Below, piece by piece: positions 4,215 through 40,957 of a stretch of 64,000 nt of DNA; the stretch's first letter is position 1; the number at the start of each line of letters is the position of its first letter. Below the pieces are notes generated by a model. The model saw nothing but the letters and a program-made list of their open reading frames with translations, was not told where the DNA came from and searched no databases. Source of the stretch: Mustelus asterias (lineage: Eukaryota); NCBI RefSeq assembly GCF_964213995.1, contig NC_135825.1:52824001-52888000 (forward strand). Direction: 5' to 3'. The translations under genes and the position numbers were made by a program.

Positions 4215-6320
4215 GACAACCATCCAAAGAGCTTCTACGAATACATAAAGGGCAAAAGAGTAACTAGGGAGAGAATAGGGCCTCTTAAGGATCAACAAGG
4301 TCATCTATGTGCGGATCCACACGAGATGGGTGAGATCCTAAGTGAATATTTCTCATCAGTATTTACTTTGAGAAAGGTAGGGATTTTAGAGAACTTGGGG
4401 GAAAAGATAGTGATGTCTTGAGGAGTGTACATATTACAGAGTCTTAAGCACATCAAGGTAGATAAATCCTCAGGACCTGATGAAGTGTATAGATCATAGA
4501 AGATCATAGAAACCCTACAGTGCAGAAGGAGGCCATTCGGCCCATCGAGTCTGTACCGACAACAATCCCACCCCAGGCCTTATCCCCACAACCCCACAGA
4601 TTTACCCCGCTAATCCCTCTAACCTACACATCCCAGGACACTATGGGCAATTTAGCATGGCCAATCAACCTAACCCACACATCTTTAACTGTAGGAGGAA
4701 ACCGGAGCACCCAGAGGAAACCCACGCAGACATGGGGAGAATGTGTAAAGTCCACAAATAGTGACCCAAGCTAGGAATCCAACTCAGGTCCCTGGAGCTG
4801 TGAGGCAGCAGTGCCACCATACCACCCCAGGGCATTGTGGGAGGCTCAGGAGAAAGGTGCGGGTCCCCTAGCAGAGATATTTGAATCATCGATAGTCACA
4901 GGTGAGGTGCCTGTAGATTGGAGGGTAGCAAATGTTGTGCCTTTGTTTAATAAGGAGTGCAGGGAAAAGCCTGGGAACGACAGGCCAGTGAGCCTAACAT
5001 CTGCCGTGGGTAAGTTGTTAAAAGGTATTCTGAGAGACAGGATCTGCAGGCATTTAGAGAGGCAAGAATTGATGAGGAACAGTCAGCACGGCTTTGTGAG
5101 TGGAAAATCATATCTCACGAATTTGATTGAGTTTTTTGAAGAGGTAACTATGAAGGTAGATGAGGGCAATGCAGTCAACTTTGTCTACATGGACTTTAGC
5201 AAGGCCTTTGACAAGGGGCTGCATGGTAGGTTGTTGCATGAGGTTAAATCTCATGGGATCCGGGGTGAGGTAGCCAACTGGATACAAAATTGGCTTGACG
5301 ACAGAAGATAGAGGGTGGTTTTTCAAACTGAAGGCCTGTGATCAGCGGTGTACCTCAGGGATCAGTGCTGGGTCCACTGTTATTTGTCAGGAGGCATGAT
5401 TAGTAAGTTTGAAGATGACACCAAGATTGGTGGCGTAATGGACAGTGAACAGTGAAGAAGGTTATCGAGGATTGCAACGGGATCTTGATCAATTGGGCCA
5501 GTGGGCTGATGAATGGCAGATGGAGTTTAATTTAGATAAATGCGAGGTGATATATTTTGGTAGATAAAACCAGGACAGGACTCAATTAATGGTAGGGCGC
5601 TGGAGAGAGTTATAGAACAAAGAGATCTAGAGGTACAGGTTCATAGCTCCTTGAAAGTGGAGTCACAGGTGAACAGGTTGGTGGAGAAGGCATTCGGCAT
5701 GCTTGGTTTCATTGGTCAGAATGTTGAATACAGGAGTTGGGACATCTTGTTGAAGTTGTACAAGACATTGGTAAGGCCACACTTGGAATACTGTGTACAA
5801 TTCTGGTCGCCCTACTATAGGAAGGATATTATTAAATTAGAAAGAGTGCAGAAAATATTTACTAGAATGCTACCGGGACTTGATGGTTATATGGAAAGGC
5901 TGAATAGACTGGGACTTTTTTCCCTGGAGTGTAGGAGTCTTAGGGGTGATCTTATAGAGGTCTATAAAATAATGAGAGGCATGGATGAAGTAGATAGTCA
6001 ACATCTTTTCCCAAAGGTAGGGGAGTCTAAACTAGAGGGCATAAGTTTAAGGTGAGAGGGGAGAGATACAAAAGGGTCCAGAGGGGCAATTGTTTCACAC
6101 AGAGGGTGGTGAGTGTCTGGAACAAGCTGCCAGAGGTAGTAGTAGAGGCGGGCACAATTTTGTCTCATGAAAAGCACTTAGACAGTTTGATGGGTAAGAT
6201 GGGTATAGAGGGATATGGGCCAAACTCGGGCAATTGGGACATGCTTAGTGGTAAAACCTAGGCGTCATGGACAAGTTGGGCTGAAGGGCCTGTATCCATG
6301 CTGTAAACTTCTATGACTCA
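4215..6320 (+). mobile_element. Degraded CR1 (ORF2 fragments), with a minus-strand SINE nested at ~4493-4825
   Basis: ORFs 4811-5311 and 5651-6055 have CR1 RT motifs (WRVANVVPLF, DFSKAFDK, RPHLEYC); tail CTATGACT. Confidence 0.92.
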
Positions 6321-28975: not shown

Positions 28976-29549
28976 GGTGATAGGGGTCAATTGAAAAGTT
29001 CACAACTGAGATTGATTTTTTATTAGGTAAGAAGATTAAGAAATATGAAACAAAGATGAGTAGATGGAATCAGCCATTGGTCAATGATTTTAATAATTTG
29101 TTTATGATTTTAATAATTTGTTTGTGGGATTAATGAACCAGCATTGAGGTCTGTTCACTGTTCCTGTGGGTTCTCTATATTCCGATAATGACACCACCAA
29201 ACTTATCGATTATTCTAAGAGGCAGAAGTTCGAAATCCGTCAGTTACTCACATTGTTCCTTTTCTTGACAGGCCTTCTCTGTAGGCCCGATGATTTAGAT
29301 GTTTGTCCTTGAGTGGTATATCCCAGGAATGTCCAGCTCACTCCCTATAGTCTGGGCAGTATCAGCTTATATTAACAAAAGGAGTGCCACAGCGATGGTA
29401 CAGTGGGAGTCGGACTCCTGGTGTCAGAATGTTCTTTACACCTGATTGTTATGTAGTGGTCTGAAGAGATAGTGGATGAGGACTAGGTCAAGCCTGAGTG
29501 AAGATGTCCTCCACAATAAAGAGCAGATTGGCTTCTAACATTATGTATG

Positions 29550-29979
29550 TGTGGTGAACCATAGATGGTTATCACTATGGGTACTTGTACATATGTTACT
29601 CTTGTTACTGTTGGGGTTAGGGTTGGGGTGTTCCACCTGTTGGTATTGTTCTGTGGTACACTCCGGTTGGCTCCGCCTACCTGTAGGAGTATAAAGGTCA
29701 CTGCACTGCCTGGTGACCCTTTAGTCTGGGATTGTATTGTTAAGCAGTATGCTCCATTCTTGTTACTAATAAAAGCCTTTATTTCCCGGGTACGATCCAG
29801 CCTCCCGAGTGAATTAATCGCGCATCAATTTTATTAGTAACAATTTTGGTTGAAAAAAAAAACCATGGAGCAAATGTTAAAACCCGATCGGCTTACCTTA
29901 GATCCGCGTGCCGCTGGAGCGTCGAACACTTTCGACCATTGGTACAATCCAGCCTCCCGAGTGAATTAATCGCGCGTCA
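29550..29979 (+). mobile_element. Internally deleted Gypsy (Mag-type) LTR element: 5' LTR 29550-29827, gag start 29865-29942, end of 3' LTR 29941-29979
   Basis: TG...CA ends; 5-bp TSD GTATG; TATAAA at 29690 and AATAAA at 29768. Gag start MEQMLKPDRLTLDPRAAGASNTFDHW is homologous to the gag starting at 40671. Confidence 0.93.
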
Positions 29980-30014
29980 GTATGTTTCTGGTAGATAGAT
30001 TCCTATGTTTCTGA

Positions 30015-33603: not shown

Positions 33604-33907
33604 ACACATTATCCGAAAGTTTGGTTTCCACATATAATTTGCTGATTACCATAAGTTGAATTTGCCTGGAGGCTATGAACAGAAAACTGAAGATTTAACA
33701 CTCAAGCACTGATTAAAAGCAATATTGATGGAGCATTTGAGGTTGCCAATCTTCCCAGTTTGGCCAGAAGTCTCCAGGGATTGAACATCAATCTCCAGGA
33801 CCCTGCTGTGTGGAGAAAACTCATCAGGACATTAAAAAAAAAGATTTTTTTTGGTCATTTTCTTTGAACATGTTTCTTTATCAGGTGTAAAATATTGAAA
33901 ATAGTGG

Positions 33908-35605: not shown

Positions 35606-35933
35606 TGTGGTGAACCATCGTTGGTTCCCACTAGATAGTACTGAGCCAGGGTCTGGCCAGTACTACAAGTATGTATATATGTTGCTGTTGGGGTTAGGGA
35701 TGGGTTGTTCTACTTGTTGATGTTGGGGTTAGGGTTGGGCTGTTACACCTTGTATTATAGTTATTGTGGTACATCCCAGTCGGGCTCCGCCTCCTGGGAG
35801 AGGTATAAAGGTCTCTGCTCTGTCTGGGACCCCTCAGTCTGGGATCGTGTATATAATTAGTAGCTGCCTTGTTACAGCAAATAAAAGCCTTTATTTCCTG
35901 AGCATCAAGCCTCGTGTGTGATAACGCGCATCA
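35606..35933 (+). mobile_element. Solo LTR of the same Gypsy lineage
   Basis: TGTGGTGAACC...GCGCATCA ends as at 29550-29827; 5-bp TSD CCTAG; GGTATAAAGG and AATAAAAGCCTTTATTTCC. Confidence 0.93.
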
Positions 35934-36543: not shown

Positions 36544-39500
36544 TGATACGCTATCAATCGAGCCGAGACTAGTTGTGAGCAAGACAAATAGGCTTTTATT
36601 AGCAAGAACTTGGAGCCCTCCCTGTCGGAGATCTGGTCTGTACTGAAGGCTAGGGGGAGGAGCCACCGCCTTGATACCCAGACCAGGGGGAGGAGACTTG
36701 GGCGGAACCGACAGGGATGTGCCACATATACAGGTACTGAGAAATACTAACTATGGTGGTTAACCACCACAGATAACATATAACAGTGGTTTACCACATT
36801 CACCCCCTGTTTAAAAAAAAAGTCCGTCGGGGGTGAAGCAGAGTGAACAATATTTACAATATTTACAGATTTAGTCTATCCGGAGGCTTGCTCTTCCGCT
36901 GCGATCGCCGTAGTACCGGTTCCAACGTGGTTTCAGGTCGCGGTGTCGTTTCGAGCGCCAGAACGTAGCTGTCATCCGTGGTTTCATCCGACCCTCGGGT
37001 GCGTGGTGACGACTCCTGGGGCTCAGGCGAGCTGTACACGGGGGTGAGAGGAGTGAGTCGTGGTTCTGACATGGTAGGGACAAAGTCGGGGGTTGGGGGT
37101 GAGGGGTTGGGGGCTATAGAGGTCCCTGAGTCACCTGCGGGCGCTAGGTCACGGATAGATACTGTGTCCTCCTGCCCATCGGGGTACTGCACGTAGGCGT
37201 ACTGGGGGTTGGCGTGGAGGAGTTGTACCCTCTCGACCAGGGGGTCAGACTTACGGGTCCTGGCATGCTTCCGAAGCAGGACAGGGCCCGGGTATGCGAG
37301 CCATGACGGTAGTGAAGTCCCTGAGGAAGACTTCCTGGGGAACACCAACACCCATTCGTGGGGGGTGGCATTGGTTGCTGTGCACAGGACCGTCCTAATG
37401 GAGTGTAGTGCCTCCGGTAGGACCTCTTGCCAGCGGGTGACTGGAAGGCCTTTAGATCATAGCGCTAGTAAAACGGTCTTCCAGACAGTGGCGTTCTCTC
37501 TCTCCACCTGTCCGTTACCCCGGGGGTTGTAGCTGGTAGTCCTACTTGAGGCTATGCCTTTGGAGAGCAGGTACCGTCGCAGTTCATCACCCATGAAGGA
37601 GGATCCCCGGTCGCTATGGATATAGCTGGGGTAACCAAACAGGGTGAAGAGGCTGCGCGGGGCCCTAATGACTGTGGCCGAGGACATATCTGGGCAGGGA
37701 ACTGCAATGGGGAAACGTGAGTACTCGTCAATGACATTGAGGAAATATATGTTGTGATCAGATGAGGGGAGGGGGCCTTTGAAGTCGATGCTGAGGCGTT
37801 CAAAGGGGCGGGTGGCTTTTATGAGATGTGCCCTGTCTGGCCGGTAGAAGTGCGGGTTGCATTCCGCGCAGACCTGGCAATTCCAAGTTACGGATCTGAC
37901 ATCCTCAACTGAGTAGGGCAGGTTTCGGGCTTTAATAAAGTGGAAAAACCTGGTGACCCCCTGGCGGCAGAGGTCATTGTGGAGAGCCCGTAACCGGTCC
38001 ACCTGTGCACTGGCGCATGTTCCACGGGACAGGGCGTCAGGTGGCTCATTGAGCTTCCCGGGCCAATACAAGATATGGTAATTGTAGGTGGAGAGTTCGA
38101 TCCTCCACCGTAATATCTTGTCGTTCTTGATCTTGCCCCGCTGCGTGTTGTTGAACATGAAGGCAACGGATCGTTGGTCCGTGAGTAGGGTGAACCATTT
38201 ACCAGCTAAATAGTGGCGTCAGTGCTGTACAGCTTCCACTATGGCTTGGGCTTCCTTTTGGACAGAGGCGTGTCGAGTTTCGGGGCCTTGGCGGGTTCGT
38301 GAAAAGAAGGCCACGGGTCTGCCCGCCTGGTTAAGGGTGGCGGCTAGGGCGAAATCAGATGCATCGCTCTCCACCTGGAACGGGATGGATTTGTCTATAG
38401 CGTGCATCGTGGCCTTCGCGATGTCTGCTTTGATGCGGTCGAAGGCCAGTCGGGCCTCCAAAAAGGGTGGATTTTATGAGCGGACGGGCTTTATCCGCAG
38501 AGTTGGGGACCCACTGTGCATAGTACGAGAAGAAGCCCAGGCATCTTCTCAGTGCTTTGAGGCTAGTGGGGAGGGGAAGTTCCAGGAGGGGACGCATACG
38601 GTTGGGATTGGGGCTGATGACCCCATCCTCCACTACATACCCGAGGATGGCGAGGCGGTGTGTACGGAACACGCACTTCTCCTTATTGTAGGTCAGGTTA
38701 AGGAGACTAGCCGTGTGCAGGGATCTGTGGAGGTTGGCATCGTGGTCCTGCTGGTCATGGCCGCAGATGGTGGCGTTATCCAGGTACGGGAAGGTGGCCC
38801 GCAGCCCGTTCTGGTCTACCATTCGGTCCATTTCACGCTGGAAAACCGAGACCCCATTGGTGACGCCAAAGGGGACCCTGAGGAAGTGGTAAAGGCGACC
38901 ATCCGCCTCGAAAGCCGTATATTGGCGGTCCTCCGGGCGGATAGGGAGCTGGTGGTACGCCGACTTCAAGTCAATGATGGAGAACACCCGATATTCTGCA
39001 ATCTGATTGACCATGTCAGATATGCGGGGAAGAGGGTACGCGTCCAGCTGCGTGTAATCGGTTAATGGTCTGACTGTAGTCAATGACCATTCTGTGTTTT
39101 TCCCCAGACTTAACGAATACCACTTGTGCTCTCCAGGGGCTGGTACTGGCCTCGATGATCCCTACCCCGAGGAGCCGCTGGACTTCGGACCTGATAAAGG
39201 CCCTGTCTCCAGCACTATACCACCTGCTCTTGGTGGCGATGGGCTTGCAGTCGGGAGTGACATTCGCAAACAAGGAGGGAGGGGCGATCTTAAGAGTCGA
39301 GAGACTGCAGGTGGTGCGCGGTGGGCAATTTAGACGCTGCTGATTGCAGACAGAGAGCGGGGGAAAAGGCCCATTATACTGTATAGTGACACTCTTCAGG
39401 TGGGTCATGAAATCTAGCCCCAGGAGTATGGAAGCGCAGAGGTGTGGCAGCATGAGGAGCCTGAAGTTATCGTATACTGTGCCCCGCACCTTCAGGGTCA

Positions 39501-40957
39501 CCACGCAGCAGCCGAGGACATTTACAGAGCGGGATTGTGACGCCATGGAGATCGTCTGCTGGACGGGCCACACGGAAAAGGTGTATCGGCGCACCGTATC
39601 AGGGTGAATGAAGCTCTCCGTACTCCCACTGTCAAATAAACAATGCTCCCTATGCCCATTTACCTCAATGTCCATCATGGACTCGGCGAGACGATGAGGC
39701 TTCGTCTGATCTAGGGTCACCGATGCCACTGTTGAATCCTGCAGATAGCTGTAGGGGGCTGATGAGGTAGGAGATGGCGGCCCCTGCTGGTCACTCGCGA
39801 CCGTTGTCGGCCAAGATGGCGGCCCCCGCGGGTCGCCGATGACCGATGACGTCATCCAAGATGGTGGCCCCCGCGGGTCGCACGTGGCGCTTGTGGATTT
39901 GGGGGTAGACTTATGGCAGGCCTTGGCGTAGTGCCCCTTCTTCCCACACGTGGAGCAGAATGACTCCCTCACCGGGCAGCATTGTCGGGGGTGCTTACCC
40001 AGGCCGCAGAAGTAGCATTTCGAGCCTCCACAGGTTGCAGTAGTGGTCAGGTCTCTGGTGAGGCGTGGGGCGGCGTAGGTCTGTGGCCCTCCCGGTAGCA
40101 ACGGCCGCGGTGTCCACGATGCGCCCACGTGGTCAGGTGAGTAGGCTTCGAGGTATTGTGAGGTCACTTCTAGGGACACAGCCAGTCGCACTGTTTTCTT
40201 CAATTCCAGCGCACCCTGTTCCAGCAGCCGTTGCCGGATATAAGTAGTTCCGATGCCCGTGACAAAGGCCTCCCGGATTAAGTTGTCTGTATATAGGGCG
40301 GCAGTCACAGACCTACAGTTACAGTTCCGAGCAAGCAGTCGCAACGCGCGCAGGAACTGGTCGACTGATTCACCTGGCTGCCGTCTGCGCGTGGCGAGGA
40401 GGTGTCTCGCGTAGACCTCATGAGGCCGTTTATTATACAGGCCTTTTAACAGTTCGATAGCGGCCGTATAATTTTCCGCGTCTCGGATCGTAGCATATAC
40501 TACGTCGCTTACCCGGCCGCGGAGCACCCGTAGTTTATCAGCATCTGTACCGATGGCAGCGGAGGCTTCGATGTAATCTTTGAAGCATTGCAGCCAGTGA
40601 TCAAACGTGTTGGATGCTCCAGCAGCTTGCGGGTCCAGATTCAGCCTTTCGGGTTTCAGTAGCTGCTCCATTCTTCAAAAAAAAAACTTGCCAATAAAAT
40701 TGATGCGCTATCAATCGAGCCGAGACTAGTTGTGAGCAAGACAAACAGGCTTTTATTAGCAAGGACTTGGAGCCATCCCTGTCGGAGATCTGGTCTGTAC
40801 TGAGAGCAAGGGGGGGAGGAGCCACTGCCTTTATACCCAGACCAGGGGGAGGAGACTTGGGCGGAACCGACAGGGATGTGCCACATATACAGGTACTGAG
40901 AAATACTAACTCCGGTGGTTAACCACCACAGATAACAGATAACAGTGGATTACCACA
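36544..40957 (-). mobile_element. Full-length Ty3/Gypsy (Mag-type) LTR retrotransposon with disabled gag-pol
   Basis: LTRs at 40701-40957 (5') and 36544-36798 (3'), about 5% divergent; TSD TGTGG at 36539-36543 and 40958-40962; PPT CAGGGGGTGAA; domain order gag (two CCHC)-PR (LFDSGS)-RT-RH (ESDAS)-IN. Confidence 0.97.
36863..40671 (-). pseudogene. Gypsy gag-pol broken into frames 39016-40671, 38355-39083, 38219-38461, 37457-38158 and 36863-37351
   Basis: CYFCGLGKH...CSTCGKKGHYAKAC knuckles, protease DSG, RT DLKSAYHQ/PFGV/YLDN, integrase IDFKGP/SDRG/NGQVER; frameshifts and stops between the pieces. Confidence 0.93.

Follow-up and report, generated by a model that had tools for sequence, protein, structure and literature searches.

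Why should the LTR of a dead retrotransposon carry an exact complement of the site just behind it, where reverse transcription would be primed? The question arises from a 430-bp element at positions 29550–29979 of the window, the whole stretch of 64,000 nucleotides of Mustelus asterias DNA that was analysed (NC_135825.1, 52,824,001 to 52,888,000, forward strand; coordinates below are those of the window). The inverted repeat could be an accident of one damaged copy, or it could belong to a working RNA structure, and in the latter case its role has to be established. Judged from comparative sequence evidence, the helix that it would form is a real RNA element shared across the clade and most likely acts as a self-primer, with a side role in masking a poly(A) signal.

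The element lies on the forward strand between two copies of the target-site duplication (TSD) GTATG (29545–29549 and 29980–29984). Its 5' LTR is complete (29550–29827; 278 nt, TG...CA), with an end that agrees with a solo LTR at 35606–35933 and with the 3' fragment. This LTR contains a putative TATA box (29690–29695), 85 nt ahead of the arm end, and the sequence TTAGT (29721–29725), which we take to be an initiator-like motif and which would place the transcription start at about 29723. The LTR arm of the repeat, the candidate 3' end of a self-primer, occupies 29760–29774 and includes the AATAAA hexamer at 29768–29773. From the first base past the arm, a second short helix is predicted, in which GCCT pairs with GGGT (29775–29792) and which would stack on the main helix. 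The predicted cut falls at the junction of arm and second helix, between 29774 and 29775. A single spacer A (29828) then separates the LTR end from the candidate primer-binding site (29829–29843), which is complementary to the arm and lacks TGG.

Comparison within the window confirmed that the two 15-mers are a perfect inverted repeat beginning one base past the LTR end, as the first-pass annotation had stated. Over six start positions, a 15-mer match in a 278-nt LTR has a chance expectation of about 2e-6. Moreover, the region is more stably folded than its shuffled versions (z = -2.7), none of 200 shuffles being equally stable. Considered in this single copy, the second helix is weak (P about 0.36), and RNAfold gives an alternative inner fold at its position.

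The remainder of the element consists of the first 26 gag codons (29865–29942, with the ATG at 29865 and codon 26 ending at 29942; nearest Gag in the alignment, P0002) joined to the terminal 39 nt of the 3' LTR (29941–29979), which are identical to the 5' LTR end at 37 of 39 positions. The join shows a 2-nt GG microhomology. The earlier description of a deletion derivative with an intact TSD was therefore accurate. Having lost the PPT and, from the 3' LTR, both U3 and the poly(A) signal, the copy cannot replicate; it is a dead, internally deleted retrotransposon and, in itself, ordinary debris. A mobile non-autonomous derivative was rejected since PPT and U3 are absent, and a TRIM, which has two complete terminal repeats, a primer site and a PPT, was rejected as only 39 nt of the 3' LTR remain and the PPT is gone. 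Deletion after insertion is the simplest account of its origin. The retained 3' LTR piece, starting at 29941 (LTR equivalent 29789), begins 16 nt past the poly(A) hexamer, at the predicted R/U5 border. It may thus be exactly U5, which would hint at an error of reverse transcription over a genomic deletion; this is a post hoc observation, possibly due to chance. Among the pieces listed from the contigs of four sequencing runs, none bridges the 29942 junction. In run X2, summed contig depth is several-fold higher on the LTR than on gag, a value that is not a copy number.

Two further elements of the window belong to the same group. The solo LTR mentioned above (35606–35933, forward strand, TSD CCTAG) represents a sister subfamily and is a third LTR that went unmentioned in the first reading; its arm differs from those of both other copies, with the AATAAAA-GCCT junction unchanged. 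The other is a full-length but broken relative on the reverse strand (36544–40957, TSD CCACA), with gag-PR-RT-RH-IN in gypsy order spread over several frames. Its LTRs (40701–40957 and 36544–36798) are 94% alike, its arm lies at 40751–40763 and its primer site at 40687–40699. In folding, this region does not stand out from its shuffled versions (z = -0.23; 82 of 200 are as stable); the 13-bp helix is nonetheless present, with pair probabilities of 0.95–1.0. Within its gag (39805–39885), a direct duplication of about 25 nt makes the peptide DPRGPPSW appear twice.

In all window LTRs compared, a TATA-like box stands 83–85 nt and an initiator-like T(C/T)AGT 53–54 nt before the arm end, and the LTRs of the small and the big element share 154 identities over 248 aligned columns. 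The common TATA-initiator-arm spacing and these identities indicate that the window LTRs are homologous. Transcription is predicted from the sequence to start 51–52 nt before the arm end in these LTRs, with about 37 nt between the start and the arm. Aligned without gaps, the arms of the two elements differ by two compensated pairs and one G-U wobble; BLAST permits a reading with a 3-nt indel. The joint change of both arms pointed out in the first reading thus corresponds to two compensated pairs, between LTRs that are related to each other.

The protein evidence places these elements within a widespread group. A search with Gag returned 79 proteins, headed by Mustelus asterias itself (86%) and followed by rays, Nematostella, Xenia, Paramuricea, Trichinella, Palaemon and Cherax. 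Using the RT-RH of an intact relative as query, 1233 proteins were found, the best 120 of which add Trichuris, Actinostola, Apostichopus, Styela and Narcine. Hosts of relatives therefore include sharks, rays, cnidarians, nematodes, crustaceans, echinoderms and tunicates. In RT, the metagenome loci are about 46–64% identical to the shark copy over the longer matches, a range across which the helix persists. The closest PDB match is the Ty3 RT (4ol8, E 7e-57), and the order PR-RT-RH-IN between LTRs with a TSD is that of Ty3/gypsy. Two intact polyproteins (loci L009 and L018) run Gag-PR-RT-RH-IN; no Chromo family was detected in them at E <= 0.1, nor any chromodomain in the window integrase tail at E <= 0.001. 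On these sequence features, the element is classed as an env-less, chromodomain-less, non-chromoviral Ty3/gypsy LTR retrotransposon. In the protein atlas it is represented by Gag clusters only, all of them unnamed. In viral contigs, pattern searches gave 6 and 2 candidates, of which none was confirmed as a relative. Rfam covariance models run on L009, L014 and L015 gave two matches, both far under the gathering scores, and no self-cleaving ribozyme was recognised among them.

Among described lineages, the paired CCHC knuckles of this Gag look Mag-like to us. The Mag lineage and further non-chromoviral gypsy clades of metazoans (the A/B/C clades, Cigr-1 and MolGy) are also similar in their small size of about 4.0–4.5 kb with a single ORF, TG...CA ends, 5-bp TSD and broad marine hosts. 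Saci2/lennie was rejected as a match on account of its tRNA primer sites, and Troyka on account of its CG ends and 3-bp TSD. In the available text of the mollusc and annelid clade surveys, the terms PBS and primer have 0 matches (PMC6238403, PMC8556966). Some database labels deserve mention here. This Gag also occurs in two shark gene models that bear host-gene names, P0004 and P0009 (PRKR-interacting protein 1 homolog; lysophosphatidylcholine symporter-like), through either mis-annotation or exonisation. Additionally, P0115 and P0181 are full polyproteins of the clade labelled as bacterial MAG proteins, and are probably animal DNA binned into MAGs.

Whether the helix is a property of the lineage was addressed in metagenome loci. 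Of 138 loci confirmed by the scan, 80 were retained; nine whose match lacked the Gag N-terminus (L041, L046, L049, L069, L071, L073, L076, L078, L079) were left out before counting, and the 71 with a gag start, together with the two window elements, gave 73 sequences. Many loci are redundant, coming from the same host or being the same insertion in several assemblies, and the 73 sequences were grouped into 23 families by computation followed by adjustment by eye. An unanchored helix search placed the best helix at the identical register in most loci. In an anchored test, LTR ends were mapped via the second LTR and set by hand at CA (the 3' LTR of L009 being truncated). The 12-mer from the second base past the LTR end paired with the element's own LTR at 10–12 of 12 positions in all 13 two-LTR elements, which represent seven families; this was equalled by none of 1000 shuffles for 12 elements and by 7 of 1000 for L064. 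The spacer base is A in all 13, and 5-bp TSDs match in nine of them.

A motif-anchored best-match search over the whole set found 10 or more of the 12 pairs in 58 of the 73 sequences, compared with 8 of 2190 shuffles. The remaining 15 fell below 10 of 12 or had no anchor. By family, 20 of 23 reach this level, and three fail or are unscorable: L016 is truncated, L034/L036 is degenerate, and L018 pairs only with a truncated 3' LTR end that has no CA end. In L018, a TGG that lies upstream of gag was weighed as a primer site and dropped, as a stretch nearer gag pairs with the 3' LTR end. Across the lineage the helix measures 12–20 bp, and its polarity fits a primer, the 3' end of the arm pairing with the base closest to U5. 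In several invertebrate families (L008 at 5984–6003, L017, L070 and L080), the primer-site helix reaches or enters the gag ATG, so that it could gate translation as well.

Sequence variation between families was then compared over 19 representatives, selected for having the helix. The LTR end and spacer read CA-A in 18 of them and CT-A in one, and none has a tRNA-type TGG after the LTR end. In these sequences, 223 of 228 pair cells are Watson-Crick, two are wobble and three are mismatched. The first-pass annotation had pointed to covariation in this region, and it is indeed found, with two or more pair types at 10 of the 12 pair positions. Mean pairing is 11.7 of 12 within a family and 7.5 between families. 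Cross-family pairings reach 10 of 12 in 51 of 342 cases, which indicates that a shared motif contributes part of the signal. The second helix, with at least 4 bp from the first base past the arm, is found in 14 of the 19 families against 4.1 expected. Certain families with divergent proteins (L002, L021 and L062, likewise L013 and L017) agree fully or almost fully in their 12-nt primer site; near-identical sites in divergent families suggest that the arm is constrained in sequence beyond pairing and hexamer.

Variation within the shark family was seen in sequencing runs. In run X2, the arm variant 29765 A>G occurs at 196302 of 518637 depth (37 contigs), and the partner variant 29838 T>C at 33656 of 63153 (42 contigs). 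Both are present in run X5, while run X6 has 29838 T>C without 29765 A>G. Another arm variant of run X2, 29766 C>G (178009 of 518637), is without a partner among the variant rows listed. Arm and primer-site variants sit on separate short contigs, so these data describe co-occurrence in runs, not linkage. In the rows listed, family contigs of four runs show no other type of primer site. The expectation that the family would not turn out to carry a normal tRNA primer site is thus borne out, as none of the 19 representatives compared has a tRNA-type site and contigs of the same family contain a compensated variant.

The strength of this evidence depends on where it comes from. The co-change within the window had been taken as independent evidence of a selected pairing. 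The pairing itself is real, family-wide and functional in appearance, but the window families share an ancestor and are therefore weaker independent evidence than the invertebrate families. If the LTR arm acts as the primer, moreover, their co-change would be partly templated: one mutation would yield matched changes in both arms, which would point to priming, not to selection acting on two mutations.

The relation of the helix to polyadenylation requires a similar qualification. In 14 of 19 families a canonical hexamer falls within the arm's final 7 nt, which agrees with the pairing of primer site and poly(A) signal initially proposed; four of 19 families, however, keep the helix without AATAAA or ATTAAA between the arm and the LTR end, so the proposal does not extend to every family. 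In L015 and L029, an A-T to G-C change falls inside the hexamer position and the helix is kept. The arms of L015/L019 and L029 end in AAGA, not AAA, with the primer site altered to match and no canonical hexamer before the LTR end. Since the helix persists without the hexamer in these four families, poly(A) masking is unlikely to be its main reason. By analogy with retroviruses, masking of the 5' poly(A) signal is a plausible second role, since only the 5' LTR is followed by the partner strand and since retroviruses must hold polyadenylation at the 5' LTR in check (PMC3694450). In HIV-1, the AAUAAA of the 5' LTR likewise lies in a stem, that of the polyA hairpin (PMC2645353). The HIV-1 hairpin is local and forms at both RNA ends, whereas here the partner is outside the LTR and a local helix is possible only at the 5' end.

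These observations lead to a model of self-priming. At the DNA level, the lineage has exchanged a tRNA primer site for one complementary to its own R region, and the whole lineage probably starts reverse transcription from its own RNA. Tf1-like priming from the 5' copy of R is the best reading, one that we hold to be quite probable. In this model, the R arm of the transcript would fold onto the primer site as a helix of 12–20 bp, with the second short helix predicted to stack at the next base. The RNA would be cut at the helix junction (arm/RCC), most likely by RNase H as in Tf1, and the new 3'-OH at the arm end would prime minus-strand DNA. From the arm-to-LTR-end distances, strong-stop DNA should measure 23–71 nt, and it could jump by way of the 10–30 nt that separate the cut from the 3' poly(A) site. 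Plus-strand synthesis would copy the primer back into the primer site in each cycle, and such templating of the primer site from the arm would account for their joint changes. With the hexamer usually inside the arm and a primer site following only the 5' LTR, this helix would probably also cover the 5' poly(A) hexamer, whereas the 3' one would stay exposed.

Other explanations have to be set against this model. The rearranged state of the 430-bp copy and the A+T-rich arms might suggest a local rearrangement or a chance match; the recurrence of the same helix and register in 20 of 23 families and 13 of 13 two-LTR elements, together with the uniform type of primer site in the rows listed from family contigs of four runs, refutes this origin, which we consider practically excluded. 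A different possibility is that the helix only hides the 5' poly(A) signal or gates translation, and that a host tRNA fragment or another RNA primes at or near the site. Such a role would suit the position of the hexamer in most arms, the motif common to arms of several families, the helices that reach the gag ATG in several families and the retroviral need for 5' poly(A) suppression (PMC3694450, PMC2645353). Masking, however, does not require a partner fixed one base past the LTR end, nor does it explain a helix kept in families without a canonical hexamer; the site lacks TGG, and it varies with the LTR arm instead of remaining constant as a tRNA would. A helix confined to masking or gating appears unlikely.

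Priming could also involve the 3' copy of R, with the end of the genomic RNA, cut right past the hexamer or trimmed of its tail, folding back or pairing in trans. The 3' LTR has the same arm in identical geometry, and this route would sidestep a long unpaired capped leader. Yet poly(A) cleavage normally occurs 10–30 nt past the hexamer and not adjoining it, and such an RNA end would be missing the second helix, which lies downstream of the arm. As no precedent was met in the literature consulted either, we regard priming from the 3' end as improbable. Self-priming from the 5' copy of R therefore remains the preferred reading.

To our knowledge, self-priming has been shown experimentally only in Tf1 of fission yeast, and it is usually taken as a mark of the Tf1/sushi group. 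Tf1/Tf2 of S. pombe, Tj1 and the Tf1/sushi elements resemble the present clade in Ty3/gypsy domain order and in a primer site complementary to their own LTR, not to a tRNA. In Tf1, the first 11 bases pair with the primer site and RNase H cuts between bases 11 and 12, and priming also requires adjoining RNA structure (PMC7175516). Tj1 of S. japonicus has been proposed to self-prime in the same manner (PMC4600332), and, as far as these two accounts describe them, structure adjoining the predicted cut is a further likeness to Tf1/Tf2 and Tj1 (PMC7175516, PMC4600332). The differences are equally clear. In the two intact polyproteins, this clade has no chromodomain, unlike Tf1/sushi; its helix has 12–20 bp compared with 11 in Tf1; and its arm, which as a rule overlaps the poly(A) hexamer, would by prediction lie about 37 nt inside the shark-LTR transcript, not at base 1. 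Hairpin priming has been attributed to chromoviruses (PMC3601003), which are reported to be absent from cnidarians, molluscs, protostomes and basal deuterostomes (PMC2774666), whereas hosts of the present clade include cnidarians, nematodes, crustaceans, echinoderms and tunicates.

Plants provide another comparison. Neumann et al. call self-priming at complementarity of at least 10 bp starting 0–5 bp past the 5' LTR, and predict it for 12% of plant elements (PMC6317226). The present elements, with own-LTR complementarity of at least 10 bp starting 0–5 nt past the LTR, fall within this definition, as do the plant Tcn1 (gypsy) and TAR (copia) elements, which are predicted self-primers. The latter differ in belonging to another superfamily or to a chromovirus clade and in their plant hosts, and the available description mentions no overlap with a poly(A) signal (PMC6317226).

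The mechanism of self-priming is thus known in itself, and the animal non-chromoviral gypsy form most likely represents a variant of it. A description of the helix for this clade was not encountered in the literature covered, Repbase Reports, GyDB and most subscription journals being outside that coverage. Some animal Gypsy families are said to have received a 'self-primed' label from Repbase curators, which makes an earlier notice possible. A more far-reaching proposal is that this large clade, outside the chromoviruses and ranging from cnidarians to sharks, evolved self-priming independently, using as primer a capped leader of about 50 nt in place of an 11-mer, a cut just past the hexamer at a stacked two-helix junction, and a single helix with two tasks, silencing of the 5' poly(A) signal and priming. 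This is advanced tentatively, as a possibility to which we give somewhat less than even chances.

If self-priming is confirmed, a second and abundant animal gypsy clade would join the known cases, and tRNA-free priming would have arisen repeatedly. It would also explain elements left without a primer site by tRNA-based annotation, and such elements might be immune to silencing by 3'-tRNA fragments. In effect, priming and 5' poly(A) suppression would be joined in one small RNA element, with a cut site predicted to the base.

The surroundings of the 430-bp copy are themselves repetitive. The window (1–64000) is rich in interspersed repeats, with at least 60 direct families, one of which begins at about 30018, some 40 nt to the right of the copy. 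Presumably, judging by their general appearance, these repeats are related to tRNA-derived SINEs and to the 3' ends of LINEs.
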